A DNA stretch of 64,000 bases from contig JBAWWL010000002.1 of assembly GCA_037146775.1 (NCBI GenBank), forward strand, positions 262,554 through 326,553, written 5' to 3'. Shown here one piece after another: positions 30,476-49,987 of the stretch. Positions within the stretch are counted from its first letter, which is position 1; every line of letters begins with the position of its first letter. The DNA comes from Candidatus Omnitrophota bacterium. Its GTDB lineage: Bacteria > Omnitrophota > Gorgyraeia > Duberdicusellales > 4484-171. A program made the translations under genes and the position numbers. The notes under the pieces were generated by a model. That model was given only the letters and a program-made list of their open reading frames with translations. It did not search any database and had not been told where the DNA came from.

Positions 30476-30479
30476 TGCA

Positions 30480-31958: not shown

Positions 31959-31986
31959 GATATTTTTCAAGATTATATTTATTTTA

Positions 31987-33346: not shown

Positions 33347-35505
33347 ATAACATTAAGTTTTCTGTTATCATTCCTACTCATACAAGGACAGCATTGCTTT
33401 TAGGCGCGATAAAAAGTTTAGAAAAACAGACAATGAATAATTATGAAGTCATAATTGTTGATAATGCTTGTTCTGAAGAGGTAAAAACTATTGTTGAGGC
33501 TAACTACAAGAGTTTCGCTGCGAAGGGTTCAGCAATAAAATATATTCCAGAGCCAAAAATCGGCCTGCATAATGTGCGGCATCGAGGAGCAAAAGCGGCG
33601 CGGGGAGATATTTTAGTTTATATTGATGACGATGTTATCTGTGATGAGAATTTATTAGATGAAATTTTAAAACCGTATAGCGATTCAAATGTTGGTTGTG
33701 TAGGAGGTAAAATCTTGCCTAAGTGGGAGGTAATCCCTCCCGAATGGATACATAAGTTTCCCAAATGGTATTTGAGCCTACTGGATGACGACGAAGGCCC
33801 AAAAGAGAAACAATGGTTATACGGATGTAATTTTTCTATCCGTAAGAGCTTACTCTTTGAGCTCGGGGGTTTCAATCCCGATTCTTTTTACGATAAAAAG
33901 ATGTGGTGGGCTAGGGGCGATGGGGAAATAGGGCTTTTGCGAAAAGTGCATATTTTAGGCAAGAAAGTTATTTATAATCCTCGTGCTATTGTTTGGCATT
34001 TTATACCAAAGGAAAGATTGGCTATTGAGTTTTTCCAGTCGCGTGCATTTAAAAGCGGCGTAGAAACTTCTTTTACGAAATATCATTACAGCCCTCGATT
34101 AATTCATTTATTTCGCCTCTTACCGCGGGCTGCCGCTTTTGGGCTTACTTCGATTTTCTGTAGTATAGAAGCAATTTTGCTTAAAACCAATCGTTTTAAG
34201 GATAAGGTAAATTCGGCTTATTATAAAGGCCGCTGTTTTTACGAATGGAGATTAGCTGTAAATAAAGAATTACAGCAGTTTATAAAACAAAAAAATTGGA
34301 TTGATAATTCAACAAACGTACTGAAAAACACTAGCCACAGTATTGCACTTGTTCTAAATGGAGAAAAGCCGTTAAGTACGTATCCTTCAGTATGTAATAC
34401 TGCTCGATTAATGGCTGAGAATGGCTATGATATTACTTTATTCATTAGAGAAGATATGAAAGTCGATTGTACATTCAAAAATATAAAAATTATTAAATTT
34501 AAAAAAACTTTTCCTTCCGTATACGGTTTATTTAAAATATTAACTTGTTATGCAAAAGAATTTGACCTTCTTATCCCTTTTCATCCTGAAGAATTAATCG
34601 CCGTAGGATTAGCGAGTTTCATATGCAGGGTGCCTTTTATTTATTTTTGCTTAGAAATTATTGATTTTGATGAAATAAAAACTTTTAAGGCAAGAATACG
34701 CAAGCATTTTGAAGTACTCTTTAACAAAAATGCTGTCGCCACAATTGTTCAGGATGATGTACGAAAAGAGTTGATTAAAAAAGTTAATAAAATAGATAAC
34801 GCAAATATATTCTGCGTTCCAAATTCTTATATAGGGGTGGTAAAAGATAAAAGTGATTATTTAAGGCGTAAGTATAATATCGAAAAAGAAAAAACAGTTA
34901 TATTGTATGCTGGCGCCCTTGAGCGCTGGGCAATAGACGTTTCGCTCATTGAAGGCATCAGGCAGTGTAATGAAAATTGTGTTTTTGTTTTGCACGGGTG
35001 GAGTTATGACGGTTTCCTTGGAACGTTAAAACCATTAATTTCTACGTGTAATGAATCCAGTAAGAAAATTTATCTTTCATTGGATGTCGTTGGGGAAGAA
35101 GAATACAGCCAGCTTGTTTCATCCGCAGATATAGGTTTAGTTTGGTACAGAAGAGATTTTTCAAATAACGTTTCCAAGGTCGGCTTATCCTCTGGTAAAT
35201 TTGCCTCTTTTTTACGATGCGGTGTCCCGATTATTATCCCGGTATATCTTGAGGAACTCAAAAGTCTTATTAACAAATATAACATAGGTAGTATGGTTGA
35301 GAATGAATTTGGAATTAAAAAAGGTATAGAATCTATATTAATTAATTATAGTTCTTGCCGAGAAAATGCTTTTAAATTTTCTTCCCAACATCTTGATTTT
35401 AGTAAGAATTTCAATTGTATTTTAAAGTGGCTAAATATTTATCTAGGCAGTAAGCACGGTGTAAAAATATATAACAATGAAAATACCACGTTTTCAGAAA
35501 ATTAA
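33325..35505 (+). CDS. GT2 glycosyltransferase fused to a C-terminal GT-B-like domain
   Basis: N-terminal FSVIIPTHTRTALL...VIIVDNA...YIDDD are GT2 motifs; C-terminal VILYAGALERW...VLHGW is GT-B-like; 726 aa. Confidence 0.6.
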   Translation: MGKSKKMNNIKFSVIIPTHTRTALLLGAIKSLEKQTMNNYEVIIVDNACSEEVKTIVEANYKSFAAKGSAIKYIPEPKIGLHNVRHRGAKAARGDILVYIDDDVICDENLLDEILKPYSDSNVGCVGGKILPKWEVIPPEWIHKFPKWYLSLLDDDEGPKEKQWLYGCNFSIRKSLLFELGGFNPDSFYDKKMWWARGDGEIGLLRKVHILGKKVIYNPRAIVWHFIPKERLAIEFFQSRAFKSGVETSFTKYHYSPRLIHLFRLLPRAAAFGLTSIFCSIEAILLKTNRFKDKVNSAYYKGRCFYEWRLAVNKELQQFIKQKNWIDNSTNVLKNTSHSIALVLNGEKPLSTYPSVCNTARLMAENGYDITLFIREDMKVDCTFKNIKIIKFKKTFPSVYGLFKILTCYAKEFDLLIPFHPEELIAVGLASFICRVPFIYFCLEIIDFDEIKTFKARIRKHFEVLFNKNAVATIVQDDVRKELIKKVNKIDNANIFCVPNSYIGVVKDKSDYLRRKYNIEKEKTVILYAGALERWAIDVSLIEGIRQCNENCVFVLHGWSYDGFLGTLKPLISTCNESSKKIYLSLDVVGEEEYSQLVSSADIGLVWYRRDFSNNVSKVGLSSGKFASFLRCGVPIIIPVYLEELKSLINKYNIGSMVENEFGIKKGIESILINYSSCRENAFKFSSQHLDFSKNFNCILKWLNIYLGSKHGVKIYNNENTTFSEN

Positions 35506-36385
35506 GGAAATTAGCTCAAAGCCATGCTTTGACGAAAAAACTATACTTGACAGGGATTCTTCATATCCCAGAATAAGTATAATTACCCCTTCCTTAAACC
35601 AGGTAAAGTTTCTTGAAAGAACCATTCTTTCGGTATTAAACCAGAATTATCCTAACCTCGAGTATATTATTATTGACGGCGGGTCTTCGGACGGTAGCGT
35701 TGATGTAATAAAAAAATATGAAAAATATATTAGTTATTGGGTTAGTGAGTCAGACAGGGGTCAGGCTGACGCCATCAATAAAGGGTTTAAAAAGGCCAGC
35801 GGTGATTTGGTTGCTTGGCAGAATTCAGATGATATATACTTGCCGGGAGCTTTTCAGGAAATTGCTAAAGAATATAAAAAAAGGAGTGGCGAAGCGGTAT
35901 ATTTTGGCGATATTATTTTTATCGACGATACTGACAATATCCTAAGCATATATAAATTGTTACCTTTTGACTTTTTCAGCAATCTTTTTGAAGGTCCTCA
36001 AGCTCCTACTCAATCTACTTTTTTTAAAAAAGAGGTCTTTTCAAAGATCGGATTTTTAAGAGATGATTATGCTTTTTCATTCGACTATGAGTATCTATGC
36101 CGAATAGGATATAATAAGCTTAAGTTTAAGCATTTAGACTGTTTTCTTGGTTGTTTTAGATTGCATAAGAATTCTAAAACTTCTCAGATAAAAGAAATAG
36201 GCAAAAAAGAGCATAATTCTATCCAAGATTATTATATAAAAGTAGCCGGCTCTAAATGCCCTAAGTCGCTGGGGTATTTGTTTTGTAGAGCGAGAAAATG
36301 GTTAATTCTATTTTTCAGAGGAGATTTTAAGTATATAATTTATAAAATATATTCAAAATATGAAAATAAAGCAAGTCTTTATTAA
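35477..36385 (+). CDS. glycosyltransferase family 2
   Basis: ISIITPSLNQVKFLERTILSVLNQNYPNLEYIIIDGGSSDGS...YWVSESDRGQADAINKG; paralogue of the ORF at 1207..2079. Confidence 0.75.
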   Translation: MKIPRFQKIKEISSKPCFDEKTILDRDSSYPRISIITPSLNQVKFLERTILSVLNQNYPNLEYIIIDGGSSDGSVDVIKKYEKYISYWVSESDRGQADAINKGFKKASGDLVAWQNSDDIYLPGAFQEIAKEYKKRSGEAVYFGDIIFIDDTDNILSIYKLLPFDFFSNLFEGPQAPTQSTFFKKEVFSKIGFLRDDYAFSFDYEYLCRIGYNKLKFKHLDCFLGCFRLHKNSKTSQIKEIGKKEHNSIQDYYIKVAGSKCPKSLGYLFCRARKWLILFFRGDFKYIIYKIYSKYENKASLY

Positions 36386-37595
36386 CATAGCACTACTGAT
36401 TTTTAGTTTTATTATCTTTATGCTGATGTTGGAGTTTATTCTTAGGGGAGTTAATCTCTGCTATGGACTAAAATATATGTCAAACCACCATAGCGCTTTT
36501 TGTGAATATGATCGTCTTTTGGGATGGAGGCATAAAACAAATATTGAAAATATATTTTTAACAAGTGAATTCTCAACGCGACTACGTTTTAATTCGAAAG
36601 GTATCCGCGGGCCAGAATATTCTTACGATAAAGACAAAGATGAATTTCGAATACTCATCATGGGGGATTCATTTGCTGAAGGCTACGCAGTTAATTTTAA
36701 TGAGCTATTCTCTGAAGTTATGAAAGATAGATTAGAAAATAGAGGGGTCCGTTGCGAAGTTATAAATGCTGGTGTTGGGGGCTACAGCACAGACCAGGAG
36801 TTGCTTCTTTTTCAAAGCGAAATGAAAAAATATAAGCCCGATTTAACAATATTGATGTTTTGCTCGAATGATATTTGGTATAACAATCAACCGAGATATT
36901 CACGCGGTTATAAACCATATTTTGTGCTTAATGATGGTAAACTTATTTTAAAAAATGTTCCGGTTCCCCCTCCGGATAATATTAAAAATTTAAAGGATGC
37001 AAAAGAGCATAAAATGGAATTATCGCTAATGCTCGGCAAAAAATGGCTTTCCCGTCATTCATATTTATATCATTTTATTATAGAAAGAGTCAAGAATGTG
37101 GGTTGGCTGTATGAGGCGGCGATAAAACTTAATTTAGTAACTTCGCCCGAGGGTAGCGTATTGATTCCAGATGAATTCAAGGTTTTTGAAAAACAGTACG
37201 ATAGCGTAGTTTCTAACGCTTGGAAAGTTACGGAAGCGTTACTTGTTGAGTTCCGTAGAGAAGCAGTTGCCGTTAATAGCAGGTTTATCGTATTTTATAT
37301 TCCTGGTTCAGCGAATATTTATGTAAAAGAATGGGAAGATACAAAGAAAAAATATAATATTTCTAGTGAATTCTGGAGTACTGACCGGGTTGGAATTGAG
37401 CTGGGCATTATTTGTAAAAAGAATAATATTGATCTAGTTGATTCCACGGAACCCATGAAAATTGCGTCAAATGAACTTACGAAGAATAATGAGGGATTAT
37501 ATTATGTCAAAGATGGCCACTGGAACATTAAGGGGAATAAGCTTGTCGGCGAACTCCTGGCTGAGCTTATTTATTCCGGTTACACAAATAGATAA
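36360..37595 (+). CDS. SGNH/GDSL hydrolase-family protein with N-terminal TM anchor
   Basis: ILIMGDSFAEGY is the GDS(L) block I motif; DGHW near the C-terminus is a block V-like motif. Confidence 0.6.
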   Translation: MKIKQVFINIALLIFSFIIFMLMLEFILRGVNLCYGLKYMSNHHSAFCEYDRLLGWRHKTNIENIFLTSEFSTRLRFNSKGIRGPEYSYDKDKDEFRILIMGDSFAEGYAVNFNELFSEVMKDRLENRGVRCEVINAGVGGYSTDQELLLFQSEMKKYKPDLTILMFCSNDIWYNNQPRYSRGYKPYFVLNDGKLILKNVPVPPPDNIKNLKDAKEHKMELSLMLGKKWLSRHSYLYHFIIERVKNVGWLYEAAIKLNLVTSPEGSVLIPDEFKVFEKQYDSVVSNAWKVTEALLVEFRREAVAVNSRFIVFYIPGSANIYVKEWEDTKKKYNISSEFWSTDRVGIELGIICKKNNIDLVDSTEPMKIASNELTKNNEGLYYVKDGHWNIKGNKLVGELLAELIYSGYTNR

Positions 37596-37657
37596 AAGTA
37601 GAGATAGTTCGATTTATTAGCAATTAATTTGTGACATATTAAACAGAAGGTTTCATC

Positions 37658-38797
37658 ATGCTATCTTTTATTTTTTGTTTATCATTGTTTATGTTGTTTT
37701 ATACATTTATCGGCTATGGACTTTTAATTTTTCTACTGTCTCGAATTCTTAATAAAAAAACCGATAAGAAAATATTTCTTCCAAGGATTTCTATTCTAAT
37801 CGCTGCCCATAATGAAGAAAAGGCAATCGAGCAGCGTATAAAAAACATTCTTTCCTTAGATTATCCCAAGGAACAATTGGAGTTAATTATTATTTCAGAT
37901 GGTTCAACTGACCGCACGGTTGAAATAATTAAGCAATTGAAGGTAGAAAATTTAAGGTTCATTCAGCAAGAAGAAAGAATCGGAAAAGTTTCTTGTTTAA
38001 ATAAAGCTGTACCGCTATGTAGCGGAGAAATTGTTGTATTTAGTGATGTGCGGCAGCGTTTTGAACTAAATGCAATCAAGGAATTAACTGCACATTTTGC
38101 TGATACGAAGGTTGGTGTGATGAGTGGAGAATTGTGTTTTGAAGATGAGGGAAAGACTATAACTGGAGAAGGAGTGGATTTTTATTGGAAGTATGAGAAA
38201 TTCCTGCGTAAAGCTGAAAGTAAGTTAGATTCAATGGTTGGCGCGACCGGTGCAATTTACGCTATCAGAAAAAACCTTTTTAAACCGATACCTGCAGACA
38301 TTCTGCTCGATGATGTATTAATTCCTATGAATATTGTTATGCAGGGGTTTAGATGTGTTTTTGAACCAAAAGCCCTTGCTTATGATCATGTAGCCAGAAC
38401 CGGTCATGAGGAAGCAAGGAGAAAAATTAGGACTATTGCCGGAAATTTTCAGCTATTTTTTAGGTTACCGCAATTGCTCAATCCTTTTAAGAATCGAATT
38501 TGGTTTCAGGCCTTTTCGCATAAGTTTCTGCGCCTTATCGCGCCAATTTTTATAGTTTCTCTTTTAATATCCAATATATTTCTTATGAACAAGCCAATAT
38601 TTAAAATATTTTTAACATTGCAGGTACTTTTTTATGTTTTTGTAATCATCGGATATATTTTGCGCAGGGTTAATTTGCGGTGTAGAATATTTTCTATTCC
38701 TTACGCATTTATGTTGCTTAATCTTATTACCGTGAGGGCATTTTGGGAGTATTTATTTTTTAAGCCGGAGAGGATATGGAGAACAGGAGAAAAGTAG
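37658..38797 (+). CDS. membrane glycosyltransferase family 2
   Basis: ISILIAAHNEEKAIEQRI...LELIIISDGSTDRT...FSDVRQ between N- and C-terminal TM helices. Confidence 0.65.
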   Translation: MLSFIFCLSLFMLFYTFIGYGLLIFLLSRILNKKTDKKIFLPRISILIAAHNEEKAIEQRIKNILSLDYPKEQLELIIISDGSTDRTVEIIKQLKVENLRFIQQEERIGKVSCLNKAVPLCSGEIVVFSDVRQRFELNAIKELTAHFADTKVGVMSGELCFEDEGKTITGEGVDFYWKYEKFLRKAESKLDSMVGATGAIYAIRKNLFKPIPADILLDDVLIPMNIVMQGFRCVFEPKALAYDHVARTGHEEARRKIRTIAGNFQLFFRLPQLLNPFKNRIWFQAFSHKFLRLIAPIFIVSLLISNIFLMNKPIFKIFLTLQVLFYVFVIIGYILRRVNLRCRIFSIPYAFMLLNLITVRAFWEYLFFKPERIWRTGEK

Positions 38798-39051
38798 ATA
38801 GTATGTAGTATAGAGTATATAGTTATATAGTGGGGAAATGACAAGCGTGAATGGTCATTCGCCTTGCCACACACTATTTACGATGTACGATATGCTACGT
38901 ATAGGGAAGGGGTCAAACCTCAAAACTAAAGAATAAAGATTAAAGTGCTGATGAGCGGTAACGTTTTAAAATCAAATATTAAATATTAAATAGCAAATAT
39001 TAAAGTTGAGACCAAGATAGGGAAAAGGGAAAATTAAAAAAAGGAGAGGAG
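38798..39051. repeat. intergenic repeat block (AGTAnnn 7-mer array; shared GGGGTCAAACCTCAAAACTAAA segment; A/G-rich tract)
   Basis: Shares the >20-nt GGGGTCAAACCTCAAAACTAAA string with 40052-40075. Confidence 0.7.
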
Positions 39052-40023
39052 ATGGGGAAGCAAAAAGTCAAAAAAGTTTTAGTCTGCGGAGCGGGAGGGT
39101 TTATTGCAAGTCACTTGGTAAAAAGGCTGAAAAAAGAAGGGTTTTGGGTGAGAGGGGTGGATATAAAATACCCGGAATTTTCTAAAACGCACGCTGATGA
39201 ATTCTTACGTTTAGATTTGCGCGAGAAGAAAAATGCTGACAAAGCCTTAAAACTGAAGACAGGAAATTTTGATGATGTTTATCAGTTGGCCGCGGATATG
39301 GGTGGAATGGGATTTATTCATTCGGCAGAATGTGAAATTATGCGTAACAACGCATTTATAAACTTGAATATGATTGATTCTGCGTCTAAGAGTGGAATAA
39401 AACGCTATTTCTTTTCTTCTTCGGTCTGCATTTATCGGGATATGAAGATAGGCGAACCGGAGTTGACCGAAGAGCAAGCTTATCCGGCATTGCCAGATAA
39501 TGAATATGGCTGGGAGAAGCTTTATGCTGAGCGTACGGCGTTAACATATGGCAGGAAGTGTGGTTTTAAGGTGCGTATTGCCCGTTTTCAAAACTGCTAT
39601 GGCCCGGAAGGCACCTGGCAGGGAGGAAGAGAAAAAGCTCCGGCAGCCTTGTGTCGTAAAGTCGCCCAGGCGAAAGATGGCGGAACCGTTGAAGTGTGGG
39701 GTAATGGTACGGCTGTACGCTCTTATACTTATGTTGAGGATATGCTTGAAGGTATTAGGCGGCTAGTTGAGTCAGATTTAGAGGGGCCTACTAACATTGG
39801 TTCGCCAGAATATGTTTCGGTGAAGGAGCTGGTTGATACGGTAGCTAAAGTCTCCGGAAAAAAATTTACTATTAAATGGATAGAAGGGCCGGTTGGCGTG
39901 CAATCTAGGAATTTCAGCAATAAGAAAATCTATTCCACCGGTTGGCGTTCGAAGTTTTCTTTGGAAGAAGGAATTAGGCAAACTTATCTATGGATAGAGA
40001 AACAAGTGAAGGATAGTAGATAG
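39052..40023 (+). CDS. NAD-dependent epimerase/dehydratase family protein
   Basis: KVLVCGAGGFIASHLVKRL Rossmann motif; AGGAGAGGAG RBS upstream. Confidence 0.75.
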   Translation: MGKQKVKKVLVCGAGGFIASHLVKRLKKEGFWVRGVDIKYPEFSKTHADEFLRLDLREKKNADKALKLKTGNFDDVYQLAADMGGMGFIHSAECEIMRNNAFINLNMIDSASKSGIKRYFFSSSVCIYRDMKIGEPELTEEQAYPALPDNEYGWEKLYAERTALTYGRKCGFKVRIARFQNCYGPEGTWQGGREKAPAALCRKVAQAKDGGTVEVWGNGTAVRSYTYVEDMLEGIRRLVESDLEGPTNIGSPEYVSVKELVDTVAKVSGKKFTIKWIEGPVGVQSRNFSNKKIYSTGWRSKFSLEEGIRQTYLWIEKQVKDSR

Positions 40024-40345
40024 TCGTGAGTATGTAGTATTGAGTAGAGAGGGGAGGGGTCAAACCTCAAAACTAAAAACTAAAAATTAAAGTGATACCA
40101 AACGGTGACGGTCGCTCGCCTCGATTCGTTCGGCGAAGCGGGCGACGCTCGTTTCGGATTACGTATAAAGGCAACGTACATAGTATAGCGTATATAGTTA
40201 GGGAGAAAGTATGTAGTACAGAGTACATAGTATATCGTGGTGGCAGAAGAAAAATTTAAATATATTTTGTATACTCCGCTACATGCTATGTATGATATAC
40301 AACATACCATGGACGATATACGACATACAATAAAAACTTAAAAGT
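40024..40345. repeat. intergenic composite repeat (AGTAnnn arrays flanking a GC-rich core)
   Basis: Core CGCTCGCCTCGATTCGTTCGGCGAAGCGGGCGACGCTCGTTTCGGATTACGT at about 40115-40166 is about 90% identical to the cores at 56445-56500 and 57570-57625. Confidence 0.7.
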
Positions 40346-40708
40346 ATGCTAAAACACATCACAATCGGAATATTTATACCTTATTGCATCTTTTTATTCT
40401 TTTATATTAAAAATGGCTTTAGGGTGGATAGCAGAAAGTTGGCCAGATTACCGTTTCTTCTTTTATTGTGCGCCATTTGGAGTTTTATGCCAAGCATCTT
40501 AAGCAAACTGCATTTATGGCCGTTAAGTGCGATCGCTAATAACTTTTATATCAGCAATATTTTTTTCTTCTACGGAATATTACGTAAAATCGGTCATAGT
40601 GGTTCTACTTTCGGGTTGGGCGTGGTTCTATGTATCTTTTTTTCTCTCGCGATTATCTATGCGAGGTATTTACGAGCGCAGGAGCGAGAAATTAGCAATA
40701 GTATATAG
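40346..40708 (+). CDS. small membrane protein, paralogue of the N-terminal domain of the ORF at 41211..42389
   Basis: RKLARLPFLLLLCAIWSFMP...FFFYGIL...AIIYARYLRA aligns with KRLTARLLFVTVIFMMFCALWAVIP...FFFHGFL...AIYAMFFLM in the downstream gene; embedded in a repeat block, so coding status is uncertain. Confidence 0.3.
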   Translation: MLKHITIGIFIPYCIFLFFYIKNGFRVDSRKLARLPFLLLLCAIWSFMPSILSKLHLWPLSAIANNFYISNIFFFYGILRKIGHSGSTFGLGVVLCIFFSLAIIYARYLRAQEREISNSI

Positions 40709-40788
40709 TATGTCGTACATAGTACATAGGGGGCAGTACAGCATATATAGCATGTAGTATATAGTCGGGTAACAAGAAGGAAAAAAGA

Positions 40789-41151
40789 GTGGAAGAGAAG
40801 ATAAAAACTTTTAAGGATCTAAGAATCTGGCAAAAGGCGATGGAGATCGTTAAAGATATTTACCAGGTAACCAACTCTTTTCCAAAAGAAGAGCTTTATG
40901 GTTTAACATCCCAGATGCGAAGATGTGCGGTGTCTCTTGCTTCGAATATTGCCGAGGGTTTTAAGAGATATCACAATAAAGAGTACAAACAATTTCTACA
41001 TATTATGTTAGGATCTGCGGCTGAATTAGAAACGCAGCTACTAATATCAGAAGAACTTAGATACATTAACAAGGAAGAAACGGAAAAAATATGTGAGAAA
41101 TTAGAGCATCTTTCGAGGATGACCACAGTTCTTATCCGTAAGCTTAAGTAA
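40789..41151 (+). CDS. four-helix-bundle protein (23S rRNA intervening-sequence protein family)
   Basis: 120 aa; DLRIWQKAMEIVKDIYQVT...SQMRRCAVSLASNIAEGF is the family signature; GTG start with a GAAGGA RBS. Confidence 0.65.
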   Translation: MEEKIKTFKDLRIWQKAMEIVKDIYQVTNSFPKEELYGLTSQMRRCAVSLASNIAEGFKRYHNKEYKQFLHIMLGSAAELETQLLISEELRYINKEETEKICEKLEHLSRMTTVLIRKLK

Positions 41152-41210
41152 CTTTTCACTATATACGATATACTATTTACAATGTACATTTATAAAAGGA
41201 ATTAAATAAG

Positions 41211-42389
41211 ATGTCTTTACCATCAGCGCATGTAGCAGTGGGTATGGGGGTACCGTTTCTGGCGGGGTTAGCCAGATTTCTGGCGACAAAACGCCTAACA
41301 GCCAGGCTTTTGTTTGTTACGGTAATCTTTATGATGTTTTGTGCGCTCTGGGCGGTTATTCCTGATATACCGCAAATGCTGCCAAAAGAGTTTCAGCATT
41401 GGGAATCAAAAATTATGCATTCAGGTTATGCTGATGTATTTTTCTTCCACGGTTTTTTAGATGAGCACAATAGCGAGGATAGGGGCCTGCTTGAGGGAGC
41501 CATGGCAATATACGCCATGTTTTTTCTTATGCTCTTTGCTTCGGCTAAAACCGTGCGCGATAATCAGAAAAAAATAGATAGAATGAAAGGTAATCCTTCG
41601 TCACCTACGGTCTTGGATTCGCTTGAAAAGATGAGTCATAAAGACATGGTCGATATCCATTGCCATATATTGCCAGGAGTTGATGATGGCCCGGATACAA
41701 TAGAGGATTCGCTTGCGATGTGTAGAAGACTACATGAGTTGGGAGTGGTGCATATTGTGGCTACTCCGCATCTACCCTGGAGAGAAAAATATGAGGTAGA
41801 TAAAATAACTGCCGCGTATAATTTATTAAAAGATGCACTTGTAAAAGAGAATATTGCGATAGAGCTTTCTCTGGGCGCAGATATCAGGATAAGCTGGGAT
41901 TTGATAGAGAGGTTAAAAAATGGATCTCTGCTTACTTTAGCCAAGGGCCGATATTTTCTTTTAGAATTAGATGATTTCACTGTCCCGCCAGGATTAGAGG
42001 ATTTCATCAAACGTTGCAATAAGGAAGGTTTTTATCCGGTGCTTACACATCCGGAGAGAAATGTTTTATTTTGTTCAGATTATGAAAGAATAAGAAAGAT
42101 TGCACAACTCCCAGTATTAATCCAAATTAGTTCTTGCAGCTTGGTCGGTTCTTTAGGTGCTGCAGCGAAAAGAGCGGCTATGGATTGGCTTAAACTTGAT
42201 TTAGTAGATGTGATGGCTTCGGATGCGCATGCGGTGAATATGCGGTTAGAAGAATTTAATAAAGGTTTATTTGCGGCACAAAAGATCACAGACCGTAAGC
42301 GACTTGAGGATTTGGTCATTGCTACGCCTTCAGCTATCGTACAAAATAAGGAGATTGAAGTAATAAAGAGAAATATAAAAAGTACATAG
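41211..42389 (+). CDS. membrane-anchored CpsB/CapC-type PHP-family protein-tyrosine phosphatase
   Basis: C-terminal MVDIHCHILPGVDDGPDTIEDSLAMCRRL...VATPHL is the PHP metal-binding motif of CpsB-like phosphatases; N-terminal about 130 aa with 3-4 TM helices. Confidence 0.65.
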   Translation: MSLPSAHVAVGMGVPFLAGLARFLATKRLTARLLFVTVIFMMFCALWAVIPDIPQMLPKEFQHWESKIMHSGYADVFFFHGFLDEHNSEDRGLLEGAMAIYAMFFLMLFASAKTVRDNQKKIDRMKGNPSSPTVLDSLEKMSHKDMVDIHCHILPGVDDGPDTIEDSLAMCRRLHELGVVHIVATPHLPWREKYEVDKITAAYNLLKDALVKENIAIELSLGADIRISWDLIERLKNGSLLTLAKGRYFLLELDDFTVPPGLEDFIKRCNKEGFYPVLTHPERNVLFCSDYERIRKIAQLPVLIQISSCSLVGSLGAAAKRAAMDWLKLDLVDVMASDAHAVNMRLEEFNKGLFAAQKITDRKRLEDLVIATPSAIVQNKEIEVIKRNIKST

Positions 42390-42519
42390 TATGTCGTACA
42401 TTGTACATAGTACAAATAAACCCTAAACACTAAACTCTAAATCCTAAATAAATTCAAAATCACAAACTAGAAATTTCAAACTTAAAACAAGATTATTGCA
42501 TATTGGAGGTAGTAAATAT
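42390..42519. repeat. intergenic repeat block (AGTAnnn then YYCTAAA 7-mer arrays)
   Basis: tacatagtatgtcgtacattgtacatagtacaaataaaccctaaacactaaactctaaatcctaaataaattcaaaatcacaaac. Confidence 0.65.
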
Positions 42520-43263
42520 ATGAAGAATAAAAGCTGTTATAGCTATGGATGGGTGCCGGATGTGCCGGATCAGAGGGATTTTTTGTATAAGGCGATTAAG
42601 CCAATAGTGCGGATAAAGAAAAAAGTTGATTTAAGGCATTATTGCTCTGCTGTGGAAGTTCAGGGGCAGTTAGGTAGCTGTACAGCGCAGGCTTTGGCAG
42701 GGAGTTTAGAGTTTTTGGATAATAAAGATGGCACGTATGTGGATGTAAGCCGGCTATTTATCTATTATAATGAGCGAGTGTTGATTAACGCGGTTGAATA
42801 TGATTCAGGAGCGTCGTTACGAGACGGAATAAAAACATTAAAGAATGACGGAGCATGTGAAGAGAGGCTTTGGCCATATATCATTAGCAAGTTTGATCAT
42901 AAACCATCGCTTAAGTGTTATAAAGAGGCAAAGGAGCATAGAATTGTTTCATATCACCGCTTAAGAGGTATACCGGAGATGTTAGCGTGTTTAAGTGAAG
43001 GGTATCCGTTTGTGTTCGGCTTTACGGTTTATGAGAGTTTTGAGAGCGAGAAAGTGACCGAGACAGGTGTGGTACAGATGCCTGGTAAAGATGAAGTCGC
43101 GCTTAGCGGGCACGCGGTGATGGCCGTAGGGTATTCGCAGGCGGATAAGCGGTTCCTGGTAAGGAATTCTTGGGGGGCCGGATGGGGTGTGGATGGGTAC
43201 TTTACTATGCCGTTTAAGTATTTAGAGACGTTGGCAGGAGATTTTTGGACAATCAGAAAATAA
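42520..43263 (+). CDS. papain-like (C1 family) cysteine peptidase
   Basis: QGQLGSCTAQALAG (catalytic Cys), GHAVMAVGY (His), NSWGAGWGVDGYF (Asn/Trp); ATG at 42520 with GGAGG at 42505. Confidence 0.7.
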   Translation: MKNKSCYSYGWVPDVPDQRDFLYKAIKPIVRIKKKVDLRHYCSAVEVQGQLGSCTAQALAGSLEFLDNKDGTYVDVSRLFIYYNERVLINAVEYDSGASLRDGIKTLKNDGACEERLWPYIISKFDHKPSLKCYKEAKEHRIVSYHRLRGIPEMLACLSEGYPFVFGFTVYESFESEKVTETGVVQMPGKDEVALSGHAVMAVGYSQADKRFLVRNSWGAGWGVDGYFTMPFKYLETLAGDFWTIRK

Positions 43264-43399
43264 TTAGGTTGATATGTTGATAGGTTAATAGGTTGTCAGG
43301 TTATTATGTTGATAAGTTAATAGGCGACAAGGGATGGGAAGGGAAAAAGCAAAAATCAAAACGAAAAAGGTAAAACGAATTAAAGTAGAAAGTTAAAAA
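43264..43399. repeat. intergenic repeat block (eight ATAGGTTG-type 8-mers then a purine-rich tract)
   Basis: ATAGGTTG ATATGTTG ATAGGTTA ATAGGTTG TCAGGTTA TTATGTTG ATAAGTTA ATAGGCGA. Confidence 0.7.
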
Positions 43400-43431
43400 G
43401 TTTTTTGAATACTCCTGACTCGGCTGAATAT

Positions 43432-43493
43432 GCGGAAAATTCTAATGAGACTTGCCCGATTTTATCGGGCTTAGGCGAATTATAATTTTCCGC
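43432..43493 (+). ncRNA. nested stem-loop; candidate structured RNA within a 945-bp ORF-free gap
   Basis: Outer stem GCGGAAAATT/AATTTTCCGC (43432-43441 and 43484-43493) enclosing GCCCGAT-ttt-ATCGGGC (43454-43470). Confidence 0.3.
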
Positions 43494-43680
43494 AACCTCG
43501 TCGGAGTAATCTTTGGCGCATCAATCTCTCGGTTGTTCCTGGAATGTTCTGCTGGGTTACCCCACAGGGTGCCCTGGTGAGTTGAGGGCCGAGGATCTAT
43601 GCGCGTCGATTAAAATAAATCTGCGAGAAGCTGCTAAATAGGGAACTAATTTCCTACCAGAAGAGTCTAATTTGTATAGT

Positions 43681-43990
43681 ACATAGTCGTGAGTATTATA
43701 TAGGTTAATAGGTTATTATGTTGATATGTTGATAGGCTATTTAATAAGGGGCTATTAGAAAAGTGGTAAAAAAGGGACAGGAAGGGGTGGAAAGGGTTAG
43801 GAAGGGGAGGGAAGATTAACGAATTAAATAATTAAAGAATTAACGGATTAAGATATTAACGAACTAACGAATTAAGAGATTAACGAATGAACTGATTAAG
43901 ATAAAAAAGGAAAAAATTAAATATCAAAAACATTCCGTTAATCGTTGAACGGTGGCGATGCTCGTTTCGGTTGCGTTAATCGTCAATCGG
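43681..43990. repeat. intergenic repeat block (AGTAnnn, ATAGGTTG, GGAAGGG and 12 ATTAAnnn units, then a partial GC core)
   Basis: 8-nt period ATTAA+NNN repeated 12 times at about 43807-43900; GGCGATGCTCGTTTCGGTTGCGTT at about 43954. Confidence 0.7.
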
Positions 43991-44145
43991 CTTTATTTTT
44001 TATGATATTTATGACTCAACCGTTATACGCGGGACGATACGAGCCGCGCCTGCCTCGCCGGCAAGGCGGGTAACCGCTCAACGCATAACGAGGTATTTTT
44101 CATAAACACTTGTCTATCAATCGATTATATAAAATATTACTTAAA

Positions 44146-44165
44146 TAACAACTTTTAAGTTGTTA
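44146..44165 (+). promoter_or_regulatory. perfect palindrome TAACAACTT-tt-AAGTTGTTA, candidate operator
   Basis: 9-bp arms with a 2-bp spacer, 5 bp upstream of the predicted -35 of the AbiEii-like gene. Confidence 0.5.
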
Positions 44166-44170
44166 AATAC

Positions 44171-44199
44171 TTGACAATACAACTTATATAGTGTAAATT
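44171..44199 (+). promoter_or_regulatory. sigma-70-like promoter (TTGACA-17-TAAATT) for the AbiEii-like/HTH pair
   Basis: TTGACA at 44171-44176 and TAAATT at 44194-44199; ATG at 44209. Confidence 0.45.
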
Positions 44200-44208
44200 A
44201 TAAGTGCT

Positions 44209-44931
44209 ATGGAAGGCAAGAGAATGGTGCAATATCAGCAAAGTGTATTAAAAGCCTTATCTAATAAGGTAAACGATTTTTATCTTGTCGGAGGTACGGC
44301 GCTTAGCCTTTTTTATTTTCAACATAGACTATCCGTAGATTTGGATTTTTTTACGCCTAAATTATCGTTTGCGAGAGTAAAAGAGATAGTTGATTACCTG
44401 CAAAAGGCTTTGGAATGTAAAGAAATCAAACTAATAGCGCAGAACCTTGAAAAAGATAAGACAAAAATGCTTATCTATAATATTAATTTTTCTACCGCCG
44501 ATATATTGAAAATTGATTTTGTAGAAGATGTTTTTGAACTAATAACAGAAGTTAAGACTGTTGACGGTATTAGAGTGTTATCATTGGAAGACATCTACAT
44601 CAGAAAGATATATGCGGTTTGCGGTAATATCGAAATAGAGGATGATGTCGGGCGCAAAAATTTTATTGGCGGGAGAGTCGCCGCGAAGGATTTCTACGAT
44701 CTTTATTTTCTTTCTCATGTTTTTATGCCGTTGTCTGGTTTTGCGCAAAAACATTGCGACGCGGCAACAAAAGAGTCTTTAATTCGCTGGTTTAAAATGT
44801 ATGACAGGATGACCATGGTTGACGGAATTTTACAAATCGATACGGAAAAAAATGTAAATGCTAAAAGTATCGAGAAACATTTTGCTAAAGAAGTTGGAAA
44901 GATTATCGAGCAGCAAATAGGTGAAATATGA
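44209..44931 (+). CDS. nucleotidyltransferase, AbiEii/AbiGii toxin-like
   Basis: FYLVGGTALSLFYFQHRLSVDLDFF matches the GGTAL...S.D.DF minimal nucleotidyltransferase signature of the AbiEii family. Confidence 0.55.
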   Translation: MEGKRMVQYQQSVLKALSNKVNDFYLVGGTALSLFYFQHRLSVDLDFFTPKLSFARVKEIVDYLQKALECKEIKLIAQNLEKDKTKMLIYNINFSTADILKIDFVEDVFELITEVKTVDGIRVLSLEDIYIRKIYAVCGNIEIEDDVGRKNFIGGRVAAKDFYDLYFLSHVFMPLSGFAQKHCDAATKESLIRWFKMYDRMTMVDGILQIDTEKNVNAKSIEKHFAKEVGKIIEQQIGEI

Positions 44932-45449
44932 AAAACAATTGGTTGTGGGACATGAAAGTAAACGAAGCAGAAGTAAAGGCAGCACTTAAAGACCCCACAC
45001 ATAAAGATTTTTTACGTTTTGCGGCTTTACTCCTTGCGCGGAATAATGAACCAAAACAGGTATTCAGTGAATATCTTGATCCGCTTGTCTTCTGTAAATA
45101 TTGGCAAGGTATTAAACGCCGGATGCGTGAAGATAAATGGGTTCAGGGAAGGATAATCTTTTGGCAGGCGATATATGACAGTTTAAAGGAGAAGTATCGC
45201 GCTAGAGGAATAATCTTTAAAAAAGAGCCTGTACCTGAAAAAAACCATCTGTGCAAAGAAGTTGGTGACAAGGTCAGCGCTTTACGCCACAGCCAGCATT
45301 TATCACAAAAAGGATTAGCAGAAAAAATGGGTATTTCCCAACAGTTAATTTCACGTATTGAAAAAGGAAGAGAGAACGTTTCTTTATCTACTTTGGATAA
45401 TGTTGCGCGTGCCTTGGGGAAGAAAGTAGAAATTAGCATGAACGTTTAG
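44928..45449 (+). CDS. XRE-family helix-turn-helix protein (putative cognate partner/antitoxin)
   Basis: C-terminal LSQKGLAEKMGISQQLISRIEKGRENVSLSTLDNVARALG is an HTH_3 motif; ATGA start/stop overlap with the upstream gene. Confidence 0.6.
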   Translation: MKNNWLWDMKVNEAEVKAALKDPTHKDFLRFAALLLARNNEPKQVFSEYLDPLVFCKYWQGIKRRMREDKWVQGRIIFWQAIYDSLKEKYRARGIIFKKEPVPEKNHLCKEVGDKVSALRHSQHLSQKGLAEKMGISQQLISRIEKGRENVSLSTLDNVARALGKKVEISMNV

Positions 45450-45620
45450 TAGAGAGTATGTCGTACGTAGTATGTAGTCGTGAGTATTGAGAGAAAGTAT
45501 ATAGTATGTAGTACATGGTATATAGTGGGGGATGGAATCGGTGGACGGTAACGGTTACATTAGAAATATTAAAAATCAAAATGACATAGTCGATAGTATA
45601 TAGTATATCGTATATAGCTG
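45450..45620. repeat. intergenic repeat block (AGTAnnn arrays around GGACGGTAACGGTTAC)
   Basis: The CGGTAACGGTTAC string also occurs at 17008-17020. Confidence 0.6.
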
Positions 45621-45745: not shown

Positions 45746-47035
45746 TTGAAAAGTTTAAGAGCAAGTATATTATTTTTATTTATTTCTCTTTTTCTTGTAA
45801 ATACAGTTTATTCTGCTGAGACGCTTAGCTGGATTGACTGCGTAAAAGAGGCGGCAAAGAATAATCCTGACCTGATTGCGGCAAGCGAAGAGATTAAACA
45901 ATTCCAGGCTGATAAAACTATTACTGCAAGCGCGCTTTTTCCACAGGTAAGCGGCAGTATGGGCGCCTCAACTACAAAAGTGCCGCTTACGACCGGTAAA
46001 ATGATTACCGGCACCTCGACAAGAGACAGCTATACTTACGGCTTAGATGCTACCCAGCTCATTTTTGACGGATTTAAGACTATTAACGAGATCAGGTCTG
46101 CCTCGGAAAATATAAAAGCCGCCCAATATAACTATCGTTTTACTTCAACCGAAGTACGCCTGAGACTACGCAGCGCCTTTGTCGAGCTTTTGGCGGCGCA
46201 AGAGCAGGTGAGAATTGCCGAGCAGATTTTTGAGCTTAGAAAACGAAATCTGGAGTTGGTCAGGTTACGCTATGAATCAGGGATGGAGCACAGGGGGGCA
46301 TTATTGGTGGCGCGCGCGAATTTAGGCCAGGCAAAATACGAGATCAAACAAGCCAGGAGAAATATCAATATAGCCCGGCAGAAACTAACCAAAGAGATGG
46401 GTAGAGCCGCGTTCAAGTTAGTGCGGGCTCAAGGGACGCTTGAGGTGGGTGATTCGGCAAAAGTGAAACCGGATTTTGAAAAAATAGCGAAAGATAATCC
46501 GTCGTTGCAGCAGTCCATCGCTTTGACACGCGCGGCTAACTATAATCTCAAAGCTACCTATGCGAATTTTTTCCCCACTATCACCGGCGATGCCGGTACG
46601 GGTAAAACCAGCCAGCTGTGGCCGGCCCACGGCGATACTTGGAATGCCGGCCTTACGGTGTCGCTGCCGATATTTGAGGGTGGCTCGCGTATGGCTCAGG
46701 TAGCGCAAGCGAGAGCCCTGTTAAACCAGTTAGAGGCGAATACCAGAAGCACAAAATATTCTGTGGTAGTCGCTCTTGAACAAACCTGGAATATATTACA
46801 GGATATGGTGGATCAAGTAGGAGTGCAGCACCAAATGTTGCTTGCTTCCGACGAACGTTCTAAGATTGCTCAGGCGCAATACTCATTAGGCTACATGACG
46901 TTTGATAACTGGACGATCATTGAAGATAATTTGGTAAAGTCGAAAAAGCTTTTTTTAGACGCGCAGGCAGCCGCCTTGCTGGCGCAGGCAAATTGGGTTC
47001 AGGCGAAAGGAGATACGTTAGAATATGAAGAATAA
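45746..47035 (+). CDS. TolC-family outer-membrane efflux protein
   Basis: Signal peptide, two-repeat coiled-coil/beta architecture, 429 aa; upstream of MacA/MacB homologues; TTG start. Confidence 0.7.
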   Translation: MKSLRASILFLFISLFLVNTVYSAETLSWIDCVKEAAKNNPDLIAASEEIKQFQADKTITASALFPQVSGSMGASTTKVPLTTGKMITGTSTRDSYTYGLDATQLIFDGFKTINEIRSASENIKAAQYNYRFTSTEVRLRLRSAFVELLAAQEQVRIAEQIFELRKRNLELVRLRYESGMEHRGALLVARANLGQAKYEIKQARRNINIARQKLTKEMGRAAFKLVRAQGTLEVGDSAKVKPDFEKIAKDNPSLQQSIALTRAANYNLKATYANFFPTITGDAGTGKTSQLWPAHGDTWNAGLTVSLPIFEGGSRMAQVAQARALLNQLEANTRSTKYSVVVALEQTWNILQDMVDQVGVQHQMLLASDERSKIAQAQYSLGYMTFDNWTIIEDNLVKSKKLFLDAQAAALLAQANWVQAKGDTLEYEE

Positions 47036-48011
47036 AAAAATAATAGTATTTTTAGTAGTGTTGGCCGTGGTAATAAGCGCATTTTTTTTGGTAAAGAAAA
47101 ACAGTAAGACAGGATCAGCTAATGAATTGACCAAAGAAATAAACCCGACTATCGGCACCATACGCGTGATTATTTCAACTACCGGTACGGTTTTACCCAA
47201 GAACCGCTTGGCGATAAAACCGCCGGTAAACGGCCGCGTTGATAGCATTTTGGTACACGAAGGGGATATGGTAACAATTGGACAGACGTTAGCCTGGATG
47301 AGCTCTATCGAGCGCGCTGCTTTGCTTGATGCCGCACGGGCACAGGGTGAGGCGGTAGTACAATATTGGCAACGAGTATATAAAGGAATACCCTTGCTGT
47401 CTCCTATTGGCGGAGAAGTCATTGTCGCCACAGTTCAGCCCGGCCAAACGGTCACCACCAACGATCCGGTTATGGTGATATCGGATCATTTGATCATTCG
47501 CGCGCAGGTGGATGAAACGGATATCGGAAAAATCTCCGTCGGTCAGAAGGCAGTAGTTAGCCTGGACGCGTATCCCAACAATAAAATAGCCGCAATCGTG
47601 GAGCATATGTATTATGAATCAAAAACAGTCAATAATGTAACTATCTATGAAGTTGATCTCGTACCGGAAATAGTACCGCCTTTTTTCCGCTCCGGGATGA
47701 ATGCATCTATAGATTTTGTGATAGACAGTAAAGAAAATATTTTGGTTATCCCTGTTGAGGCGGTGCAGCGAGTAGACAACGAAACTTTTGTGATGCTGCA
47801 CTCAGGGAAGGGCAAGGGGTCGGTTAAGCGCCAGGTAAGCCTGGGTATTTCTGATGATAAGAATATTGAAGTTTTATCCGGATTAAACGAAGATGACGCC
47901 ATCGTAGTAAAAAGTAAAAAATACGCTCTTCCTAAGAGCGATACTGGAACAAATCCTTTTATGCCGGGCCGTAAGAAGCCAACCCAGCCCAGTTCCGGCC
48001 AAAGCCGTTAG
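47025..48011 (+). CDS. efflux periplasmic adaptor subunit (HlyD/MacA family)
   Basis: N-terminal TM anchor then biotinyl-lipoyl-like and beta-barrel segments (VHEGDMVTIGQTLA, VVATVQPGQTV). Confidence 0.7.
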   Translation: MKNKKIIVFLVVLAVVISAFFLVKKNSKTGSANELTKEINPTIGTIRVIISTTGTVLPKNRLAIKPPVNGRVDSILVHEGDMVTIGQTLAWMSSIERAALLDAARAQGEAVVQYWQRVYKGIPLLSPIGGEVIVATVQPGQTVTTNDPVMVISDHLIIRAQVDETDIGKISVGQKAVVSLDAYPNNKIAAIVEHMYYESKTVNNVTIYEVDLVPEIVPPFFRSGMNASIDFVIDSKENILVIPVEAVQRVDNETFVMLHSGKGKGSVKRQVSLGISDDKNIEVLSGLNEDDAIVVKSKKYALPKSDTGTNPFMPGRKKPTQPSSGQSR

Positions 48012-48016
48012 AAATT

Positions 48017-49987
48017 ATGATAGAACTCAAAGGTATCAATAAAACTTATGTAATGGGTAAGGTGGAAGTAAAGGCACTTAATGAGGTGTCTTTAAAAATC
48101 TCAGCCGGTGAATTTGTGGCAATTATGGGCTCTTCCGGATCAGGTAAGTCTACGCTTATGCATATCCTGGGTTTGCTTGATAGGCCCGATTCCGGGTCAT
48201 ATTCTCTGGGTGATAAAGACATCACCAAACTTTCCGATGAAGAGTTAGCTAATTTACGCAACCGGTTCATCGGATTTGTTTTCCAGCAGTTTCATTTACT
48301 GCCCAGAATGACCGCGCTTGAGAACGCGGAGTTACCTTTGATTTATGCCGGCAAAAGGCATTTAAAAGAAAAAGCCAAAGAGGAGCTTAAGGAAGTTGGT
48401 TTAGCGGATAGAATGCTTCATCAGCCAAATGAAATGTCCGGAGGCCAGCAACAGCGGGTGGCGATTGCCCGCTCATTAGTGAATGAGCCGTTAATACTGT
48501 TGGCAGATGAGCCTACCGGTAACCTTGATTCAAAAAGTAAAGAAGAAATAATTAACATATTAAAGAAATTGAACGAAAAAGGCAAAACCGTAGTTATTGT
48601 TACGCATGAAAAAGAGGTGGCAGCACATGCTAAGCGCGTTATTCAGATGCGCGACGGCCAGATCATCTCTGATGAATGCATGGTGCGTGAAAAGCAGATG
48701 TGCGAATCAATCGCGGAACAAACGAATCTGGTAAATGCCGCTTTATCAACGCCGCATAAAGTTTCCGGAGAAACAAAGTTTTTAGATTACTTACGCCAGG
48801 CGGTATTTGCGATGGTCTCGCATAAGATGAGGTCTTTATTGTCTATTCTGGGAATCTTAATCGGGGTAGCTGCAGTTATTGCCATGCTGGCAATAGGTGA
48901 GGGTGCCAAGTCTTCCATTGAAAAACAACTCGCTTCTCTGGGTTCGAATCTTTTATCGATTAGGCCGGGTTCCGCAAAATTACACGGAGTATCTATGGGT
49001 GCAGGCGCGGTAACGCGGTTTACCTTTGCGGATGTAGTAATGATTTCTAAACTGGGTGATGCGATCGCAAGAATATATCCCTCGGTAAATGGCAGGGGGC
49101 AGATTGTTTATGGTAATAAAAACTGGAATACTCAGGTTGAGGGTGTAGGCGTAGAGTATGCCGAAATGCGCGCGTCTGTTCCTATAATCGGAAGATTTTT
49201 TACCGAGCAAGAATTACGCATGAGAGAAAAGGTGGCAGTTTTAGGGGTGACGGTGGTAAAAGAATTATTCGGCGAAGACAACCCTGTTGGCCAAACCATA
49301 AAGATGAATTTGATTAATTTTAAGGTTATCGGAGTTTTACCCGAAAAGGGGGCGAGTTCCTGGCATGATCAGGATGATTATGCAATTATCCCGGTTACTA
49401 CCGCCATGTATAGAGTGTTTGGCAAACAATATATTGACTCGATTTTTGTAGAAGTAAAAAGCCCGGAACTGATTGAATCTACCCAGGAGCTTTTGACAAA
49501 AGCAATCATCAAACAGCATCGTCTGACCAAAGACGAAGAAGACTCTTTCCAAATTCGCAACATGTCCGATATAAAAGCGACTCTGGAAACTACCACTAAG
49601 ACTATGTCGATGTTGTTGGGCGCCATTGCCGCCATATCGCTTCTTGTGGGGGGTATCGGCATTATGAATATTATGTTGGTTTCGGTGACTGAGCGCACCA
49701 GGGAAATTGGTTTACGTAAGGCAATTGGAGCGACCAATAAAGACATTATGGTGCAGTTTCTTATTGAGGCGATACTGATGTCTTTTATCGGCGGTATCGT
49801 GGGTGTACTTCTTGGTGCAGGTATCGCGGTGCTTATTACATTTTTTGCCGGTTGGGCAGTAAAACTTTCCGGGTTTTCAATAGTACTGGCGACAACATTT
49901 TCTTTGGTAATAGGAATATTGTTTGGGATTTGGCCGGCTCAAAAAGCGGCGCAGCTTGATCCTATCGAGGCGCTGCGTTATGAATGA
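48017..49987 (+). CDS. macB: MacB-type ABC transporter (fused ATPase-FtsX permease)
   Basis: GSSGSGKST Walker A, LSGGQQQRVAIARSL signature, LLADEPTGNLD Walker B, then a 4-TM FtsX-like C-terminal domain. Confidence 0.85.
   Translation: MIELKGINKTYVMGKVEVKALNEVSLKISAGEFVAIMGSSGSGKSTLMHILGLLDRPDSGSYSLGDKDITKLSDEELANLRNRFIGFVFQQFHLLPRMTALENAELPLIYAGKRHLKEKAKEELKEVGLADRMLHQPNEMSGGQQQRVAIARSLVNEPLILLADEPTGNLDSKSKEEIINILKKLNEKGKTVVIVTHEKEVAAHAKRVIQMRDGQIISDECMVREKQMCESIAEQTNLVNAALSTPHKVSGETKFLDYLRQAVFAMVSHKMRSLLSILGILIGVAAVIAMLAIGEGAKSSIEKQLASLGSNLLSIRPGSAKLHGVSMGAGAVTRFTFADVVMISKLGDAIARIYPSVNGRGQIVYGNKNWNTQVEGVGVEYAEMRASVPIIGRFFTEQELRMREKVAVLGVTVVKELFGEDNPVGQTIKMNLINFKVIGVLPEKGASSWHDQDDYAIIPVTTAMYRVFGKQYIDSIFVEVKSPELIESTQELLTKAIIKQHRLTKDEEDSFQIRNMSDIKATLETTTKTMSMLLGAIAAISLLVGGIGIMNIMLVSVTERTREIGLRKAIGATNKDIMVQFLIEAILMSFIGGIVGVLLGAGIAVLITFFAGWAVKLSGFSIVLATTFSLVIGILFGIWPAQKAAQLDPIEALRYE

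Follow-up and report, generated by a model that had tools for sequence, protein, structure and literature searches.

Organization of the locus

The window analysed here, a 64-kb stretch of DNA from a metagenome-assembled genome (MAG) of a Candidatus Omnitrophota bacterium, contains three consecutive open reading frames (ORFs) on the + strand, of 120 amino acids (40346-40708), 120 amino acids (40789-41151) and 392 amino acids (41211-42389). The system in question is formed by the first and the third: a PHP-type phosphatase of the CpsB/YwqE family joined to an N-terminal membrane domain, and a small free-standing protein related to that membrane domain. The membrane domain of the fusion is referred to as the A-type and the small protein as the B-type. 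Their features are the following:

40346-40708, + strand: small free-standing protein of 120 amino acids with three predicted transmembrane (TM) helices, degenerate B-type paralogue of the phosphatase membrane domain (BLASTP, hhalign, homologues, purifying selection)
41211-41591, + strand: A-type membrane domain of the fusion, residues 1-127 (AlphaFold2 models, conservation)
41592-41645, + strand: flexible linker, residues 128-145 (predicted local distance difference test score, pLDDT; gapped alignment columns)
41646-42389, + strand: CpsB/YwqE-type PHP phosphatase domain, residues 146-392, predicted to be cytoplasmic (Pfam PF19567, PDB sequence matches, Foldseek)

The phosphatase domain

CpsB (Cps4B of Streptococcus pneumoniae) and YwqE (PtpZ of Bacillus subtilis) are Mn-dependent phosphotyrosine phosphatases of the PHP family. 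Residues 146-377 of the 392-residue protein matched the Pfam family PF19567 (CpsB_CapC) over profile positions 1-233 of 234 (E 1.6e-47, 162.4 bits against a cut-off of 27), and the nearest solved relatives in a PDB sequence search were YwqE (E 9.8e-27) and Cps4B (E 1.2e-19). The AlphaFold2 model of the whole protein had a mean pLDDT of 89.7, with values above 90 over the PHP domain. Using Foldseek, this domain was matched to YwqE (3qy6) with an E value of 2.4e-18, a TM-score of 0.88 and a root mean square deviation (rmsd) of 1.8 Å, and to 2wjd with a TM-score of 0.88. The motifs of the metal site were all present (HCH150-152, DDG, ATPH187, E252, HPER280-283 and SDAH337-340), and D148, H150, H152, D158, D159, H187, E252, H280, E282, R283, D338 and H340 were invariant in an alignment of 59 sequences that included canonical CpsB-like proteins. 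Thus, by profile, fold and motifs the enzyme domain of the fusion is a member of the CpsB/YwqE family. Since the invariant columns were all kept and the fold matched that of CpsB/YwqE, the domain also looks active, as far as this can be read from the sequence.

The identity was 35-39% with canonical CpsB-like proteins and 26-30% with the known CpsB (Cps4B) and YwqE enzymes. The NCBIfam model NF041488 for Cps4B equivalogs was not reached (101.8 bits, cut-off 400), and on this score the protein would be classed as a member of the CpsB family and not as a Cps4B equivalog. The usual form of the family is a soluble single-domain protein of about 240-260 amino acids, and the ordinary homologues in our search had 231-299; the present protein, with 392 amino acids and three N-terminal TM helices, departs from this form. 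The original prediction, made from the sequence, had proposed the fusion of a CpsB-type phosphatase to a membrane domain, and this was borne out: 17 full-length homologues of 382-405 amino acids, 43-91% identical, carried the same architecture, while the next-best matches after them were ordinary CpsB proteins of 237-260 amino acids that aligned to the C-terminal 60% only. The fusion sequences are already public, the present one as MEI8349059.1 under the name 'CpsB/CapC family...', but they are not recognised there as fusions.

The small gene and its pairing with the fusion

The 120-residue protein encoded from 40346 was aligned to the fusion by BLASTP with an E value of 2e-9 over 121 columns (composition-based statistics), and to its membrane domain by hhalign with a probability of 99.1% (E 6e-19), the identity between the two membrane domains being 25%. 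The predicted free-standing paralogue is therefore real, the similarity of the two membrane segments being significant in both the pairwise and the profile alignment. In 21 homologues of about 120 amino acids the N-terminus MLKHI was found in common. Comparison of five orthologues indicated purifying selection on the gene (0.17-0.42 non-synonymous changes per site, synonymous changes saturated at 0.7-0.9), and together with the homologues this ruled out a spurious ORF. In the public record the gene is represented only by its C-terminal 73 amino acids, starting at an internal Met (MEI8349057.1, WCI77_02790), and a Logan assembly has the same truncated form; judging from the homologues, the 120-residue form starting with the ATG at 40346 is the correct one.

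All the related loci examined with their upstream flank have the small gene either directly adjoining or overlapping the fused gene (loci L001, L002, L003-5, L007, L008, L014, L015 and L031), with a geometry typical of translational coupling. In L001 the small gene is an uncalled ORF at 4796-5173. The adjacency persists down to 36-53% amino-acid identity. In nine loci, belonging to seven other lineages of Omnitrophota, the pair closes a Wzx-type glycan operon, the upstream part of which is also present in the window:

29165-40023, + strand: upstream part of the same conserved glycan operon (Pfam, synteny with L031)

According to Pfam, this part encodes a B12-binding radical SAM protein (B12-rSAM), a Wzx flippase (30480-31958), methyltransferases, three GT2 enzymes, a GDSL esterase and an NAD-epimerase; the window also has a gene for a Wzy_C protein at 6393-7667. 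The order in L031 is as in the window, namely B12-rSAM, Wzx, methyltransferases, GT2, GT2, GDSL esterase, GT2, small gene and fused gene, so the placement of the phosphatase in a glycan locus holds. The small ORF had been regarded as a duplicated anchor inside a repeat block. A local duplication of this kind is ruled out by the 25% identity, by the lineage-wide occurrence of the pair and by the genome-wide distribution of the repeats; as judged by these comparisons, the two genes are ancient A/B paralogues, normally contiguous and conserved across Omnitrophota.

In L008 (10001-11194) the fused gene was broken into pieces of 322 and 83 amino acids, both matching CpsB_CapC, which reads as a frameshift or an assembly error. 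This genome is a MAG labelled Chlamydiota (GCA_042567415.1), the neighbourhood being otherwise Omnitrophota-like.

A wider family of small membrane proteins

The membrane domain belongs to a family defined here as a unit of about 110-125 amino acids with three TM helices, a His at the start of TM1, the motif W-[AS]-x-x-P-D at the end of TM2 and the motif [ND]-[ILV]-F-F-F-H-x-x-x-D in the outer loop. When 1.84 billion representatives were searched exhaustively with HMMER, 171 clusters were obtained at E <= 1e-3. Among the 150 representatives listed, nearly all were free-standing proteins of about 100-215 amino acids, some were shorter fragments, and the PHP fusion was present in only three. In GTDB genomes, relatives were found in Omnitrophota, Planctomycetota (Phycisphaeraceae and the cultured Stieleria mannarensis), Kiritimatiellae and one Pseudomonadota MAG. 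The family as a whole thus occurs mostly in the PVC group, at the ends of clusters of glycan genes; the free-standing members usually come after GT2, GT4, UDP-glucose dehydrogenase or PGA_cap genes. In S. mannarensis JC639 (L027, 8401-10321) the next gene after a PGA_cap (CapA-like) gene (E 1.1e-62) encodes a free-standing A-type member; being cultured, this strain could serve for the genetic study of the membrane family.

Every family motif was found in the membrane domain of the fusion, the conserved residues being H7, G11, W47, P51-D52, F77-F-F-H80, D84 and E89-D90. Conservation in 102 non-Omnitrophota representatives amounted to 100% for P51, 97% for H80 and 86% for both D52 and D84. By these motifs the fused copy is to be taken as a canonical A-type member. 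The 120-residue protein keeps H4, W45 and P49, and has PS for PD, FFFY for FFFH and R/K for the second Asp. The same tendency was seen in the free Omnitrophota copies of the B-type, in which H, W and P are retained while D52 is replaced by S or N, D84 by R or K, and H80 by Y in 64%. The mean net charge of the outer loop is -1.9 in the A-type and +2.6 in the B-type. An independent A-then-B tandem pair was detected in L011 (probability 82%, E 1e-5), and a 249-residue protein (P0183) with two matched stretches may be a tandem fusion. Since the polar cluster is kept in one paralogue and lost in the other although the two are always co-encoded, since the charges of their outer loops are opposite, and in view of the L011 pair and the possible fusion in P0183, the A- and B-type proteins most likely form a heteromeric unit.

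Structure and topology of the membrane domain

In the AlphaFold2 models the membrane domain consisted of three long helices, TM1 (residues 5-26), TM2 (31-56) and TM3 continued by a juxtamembrane helix (92-127), with three short loop helices at residues 59-86 between TM2 and TM3. Modelled alone, the domain had a pLDDT of 86. The linker of about 18 amino acids that follows varies in length and sequence among the orthologues, giving gapped and unconserved alignment columns, and its residues 130-137 had pLDDT values below 50. Loop 1 has three basic residues (K27, R28, R32; charge +3) and lacks acidic ones. Between TM2 and TM3 nine acidic residues stand against three basic ones (net -6), and behind TM3 there are six basic and two acidic ones (net +4). 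Following the positive-inside rule, we infer three TM helices with the N-terminus outside and the C-terminus inside, so that the conserved polar cluster would face outward and the PHP domain would be cytoplasmic.

The novelty claimed for the membrane domain was confirmed: no significant match was found in Pfam and none in NCBIfam, and Foldseek against the PDB, in which structures of SemiSWEET and EmrE are included, gave a best E value of 2 with TM-scores of at most 0.37. A SemiSWEET/EmrE-like fold is thus unsupported, the NCBIfam SemiSWEET model giving E 0.05, far under its cut-off. An identity with YdjM (PF04307), a family of predicted membrane-bound metal-dependent hydrolases, was rejected, because the Pfam match (E 0.17) appeared in one of 16 members and was not significant, and the 142-sequence family profile gave a probability of 0.1-0.6% when aligned by hhalign to the single sequence of E. 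coli YdjM. For the PAP2 lipid phosphatases (PF01569) the best E value was 0.015, below the threshold, with residues 2-46 aligned to profile positions 50-93. The motifs of PAP2 are C1 (KxxxxxxRP), C2 (PSGH) and C3 (SRxxxxxHxxxD); the Lys/Arg of C1 and the His of C2 did not appear in the conservation table of the membrane domain, and C3 was absent. What the domain has in common with YdjM and PAP2 is a superficial pattern of an N-terminal His, two TM helices, 'PD', a loop His and a further TM helix, and the likeness of its 'LPxMHTA' stretch to the PAP2 'PSGH' is equally superficial.

Comparison with known systems

PHP-type tyrosine phosphatases such as CpsB, YwqE, Php1 and PhpA are soluble partners of bacterial tyrosine kinases (BY-kinases) and control the output of capsule or exopolysaccharide. 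PhpA of Myxococcus xanthus is a PHP tyrosine phosphatase from a Gram-negative organism, linked to exopolysaccharide and community phenotypes. A further enzyme outside the Firmicutes, with exopolysaccharide and community phenotypes, is Php1 of Porphyromonas gingivalis (PMC6759763). Both Php1 and PhpA are described as soluble single-domain proteins with identified BY-kinase substrates, and neither a membrane domain nor a paralogous partner is reported for them. The known CpsB/YwqE enzymes are soluble, have about 245-255 amino acids and are encoded beside the CpsC/CpsD or the YwqC/YwqD kinase (PMC2777267). The PHP domain of the fusion has the same fold (TM-score 0.88, rmsd 1.8-2.5 Å), matches CpsB_CapC and is likewise encoded in a surface-polysaccharide locus. 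In contrast to these enzymes, the fusion has an additional 127-residue domain of three TM helices and a linker, it is accompanied by a paralogous small membrane protein, and its gene lies at the 3' end of the operon with no kinase gene within tens of kb.

The arrangement also resembles CpsC/CpsD and Wzc, in which a membrane module, either fused or encoded by a separate adjacent gene, ties a cytoplasmic phospho-signalling enzyme to glycan assembly. However, the tethered enzyme here is a phosphatase instead of a kinase, and the unit of three TM helices is unrelated to the Wzz/polysaccharide co-polymerase fold (best Wzz Pfam E 0.22). In a full-text literature search no description of a membrane-anchored PHP/CpsB phosphatase was found, and nothing on tyrosine phosphorylation in Omnitrophota. 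The lineage-wide tethered form means that the phosphatase arm of a BY-kinase circuit can be a membrane-integrated component. The analysis also brings out an unannotated small-membrane-protein family that shares a conserved His/Asp cluster and is associated with glycan loci in several phyla of which little is known. Its practical yield is the corrected model of the small gene and a family defined well enough for Pfam-style curation. The significance is limited by the fact that the organisms are uncultivated.

Proposed role of the membrane-tethered phosphatase

Our preferred interpretation, to which we assign a probability of roughly 0.55, is that a conserved A/B membrane module of Omnitrophota tethers an active phosphotyrosine phosphatase at the site of glycan assembly. 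The PHP phosphatase would be held in the cytoplasm by a flexible tether of about 18 residues on the domain with three TM helices. The A and B proteins may associate in the inner membrane as a heterodimer of one active and one degenerate partner, and the resulting unit of six TM helices would bring the phosphatase to the machinery of glycan assembly, so that phosphotyrosine could be stripped from a membrane-associated target there. This target could be a BY-kinase or a co-polymerase whose gene lies elsewhere, or else a glycan enzyme phosphorylated on tyrosine. In addition, the action of the phosphatase may be coupled through the outward-facing site to something sensed or bound outside. Such a membrane-tethered fusion would imply a regulatory wiring different from that of the soluble enzymes, as the original prediction suggested.

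Several points weigh against this interpretation. The usual linkage of the family to a BY-kinase (CpsD, YwqD or Wzc) and to a Wzz-type modulator was seen neither in the window nor in the 10-kb neighbourhoods of the relatives. No match to Wzz, GNVR, AAA_31, CbiA or a BY-kinase P-loop family was obtained among the ORFs of at least 110 amino acids in the window, which agrees with the earlier statement that the window has no kinase, and no Wza gene was found in the 64 kb. The genes called in L001-L008 and L031 over a distance of 10 kb likewise included neither a BY-kinase nor a Wzz gene. A BY-kinase may be encoded elsewhere in the genome. The loop pLDDT was just 64-76 in the AlphaFold2 models, and the topology is a prediction from the positive-inside rule. 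The heterodimer, which we infer from co-occurrence and residue patterns, finds no parallel in most of the non-Omnitrophota members, since a B-type partner was not detectable near them, and the reading of P0183 as a clean tandem A-B fusion is weakened by the probability of 26% obtained for its second half.

The alternative that survives best, and that has some weight although we consider it rather unlikely, is that the PHP domain is a membrane-associated phosphoesterase which acts on a lipid-linked or sugar-phosphate intermediate of glycan synthesis and not on a BY-kinase, the module of three TM helices positioning or delivering the substrate. The failure to find kinase or Wzz genes in the window and near the related fused loci would fit such a case, as would the place of the pair as the final unit of a biosynthetic operon, directly after GT2 and epimerase genes, whereas in the Firmicutes cpsB adjoins cpsC and cpsD. 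The occurrence of the membrane family in glycan clusters devoid of any phosphatase, the Stieleria member following a PGA_cap gene and the low score with the Cps4B equivalog model (102 bits against 400) point in the same direction. However, the nearest and only solved relatives, YwqE and Cps4B, are phosphotyrosine phosphatases, all the invariant columns are common to the fusion and the canonical CpsB-like proteins at 35-39% identity, and a protein substrate suits a PHP domain that is predicted to be cytoplasmic and flexibly tethered.

A more novel reading, which must be called speculative and is on balance unlikely, would make the A/B pair not a tether but a working outward-facing site, either a sensor that binds a metal or ligand or a small hydrolase acting on a lipid-linked glycan, with the state of this site passed on to the PHP domain by way of TM3 and the juxtamembrane helix. 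If this reading of the outward site were true, the protein would be a bacterial receptor-type tyrosine phosphatase, and a function would be at hand for the family of small membrane proteins that end glycan operons in Planctomycetota, Kiritimatiellota and Omnitrophota.

That the membrane domain is a passive anchor, and the small ORF an accessory or a relic with no functional link to the phosphatase, seems improbable to us. The domain does match no known functional family, the conserved acidic residues are lost from the B-type, and the physical separation of the two genes in the window has done neither ORF any visible damage. On the other hand, a mere anchor would not hold invariant His, Asp and Pro residues across phyla, the B gene lies beside or overlaps the A-PHP gene in all the examined loci with an upstream flank and is under purifying selection, and free-standing members of the family are maintained in glycan clusters. 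Since the outward-facing His and Asp residues are invariant, the module appears to be more than an anchor. Thus of the anchor role proposed earlier, the membrane segment stands, while a purely anchoring function is disfavoured by the invariant polar residues and by the wider free-standing family.

The least probable of the explanations is a small translocator of 3+3 TM helices, similar to SemiSWEET or ArnE/ArnF, which would carry a sugar, a metal or a lipid-linked sugar and have the phosphatase as a fused regulatory or processing domain. It would suit units that occur singly, in tandem pairs and in one apparent tandem fusion, and that adjoin membrane GT2 enzymes. Against it speak the Foldseek result (at best E 2, TM-score 0.37), the SemiSWEET score (E 0.05) and the model and conservation, according to which the conserved residues would gather at one membrane face and not along a pore.

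The inserted gene and the intergenic repeats

Two further features lie around the small gene:

40789-41151, + strand: 23S-rRNA-IVP / four-helix-bundle gene, inserted, outside the system (PF05635, E 3.5e-40)
40013-40340, no strand assigned: (GTAYATA)n heptamer arrays in both orientations, from the epimerase gene to the small gene (repeat searches, Tandem Repeats Finder)

The two genes of the pair are separated in the window by 502 bp that contain the 23S-rRNA-IVP (bAvd-like) gene, which is absent between them in all the related loci listed above. By tblastn a single copy of this gene was found in the window. It is bracketed by inverted heptamer arrays at 40736-40765 and 41158-41187. Because the gene and its arrays sit between two genes that are contiguous in all the relatives, the segment 40709-41210 suggests a small mobile or recombination-prone cassette.

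The arrays near the pair lie at 40013-40340, 40698-40765, 41151-41195 and 42379-42414, and both the small gene and the IVP gene are bracketed by inverted arrays. The GTAYATA pattern had 37 matches in the window, while 1.6 were expected. What had been described as a repeat block around the small ORF is therefore a genome-wide intergenic repeat. Many + strand genes are followed by such an array, of 2-6 units, which starts at the stop codon or immediately behind it, and inverted pairs of arrays are frequent; others were found at 38793-38831, 45454-45617, 50847-51074, 54939-54964, 56385-56411, 57518-57814, 60151-60180 and 62797-62862. They resemble the STRR heptamer repeats of cyanobacteria.

No Rfam match was found in 38700-44300, and a promoter and terminator scan of 39900-42600 gave nothing above chance. 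At 40100-40165, within the AT-rich spacer upstream of the small gene, there is a G+C-rich stretch, gtgacggtcgctcgcctcgattcgttcggcgaagcgggcgacgctcgtttcgg, with imperfect dyad symmetry, which had no Rfam match either.

Immediately downstream of the phosphatase gene there are a gene for a papain-family (C1) cysteine protease (42496-43263), an AbiEii toxin/helix-turn-helix antitoxin pair (44209-45449) and, beyond this pair, a TolC-HlyD-MacB efflux operon (45746-49987). None of these is kept beside the A/B pair in the related loci.

Further classes of tandem repeats, with units of 7 and 8 nt, make up mosaics in the intergenic spacers of the second half of the window, namely TAAACCC/GGGTTTA (telomere-like), ATTAACGA/ATTAAAGA and ATAGGTTG, which were located at 42417-42448, 50864-50992, 56513-56649 and 57643-57778, and also at 43265-43324, 43815-43904, 54973-55014, 60192-60340, 62058-62187 and 62908-63043. 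They often form nested inverted arrays, for example AGTATAT-AAACCCT ... TTTAGGG-TATACTA at 57518-57814, and such arrays could fold as long imperfect hairpins.

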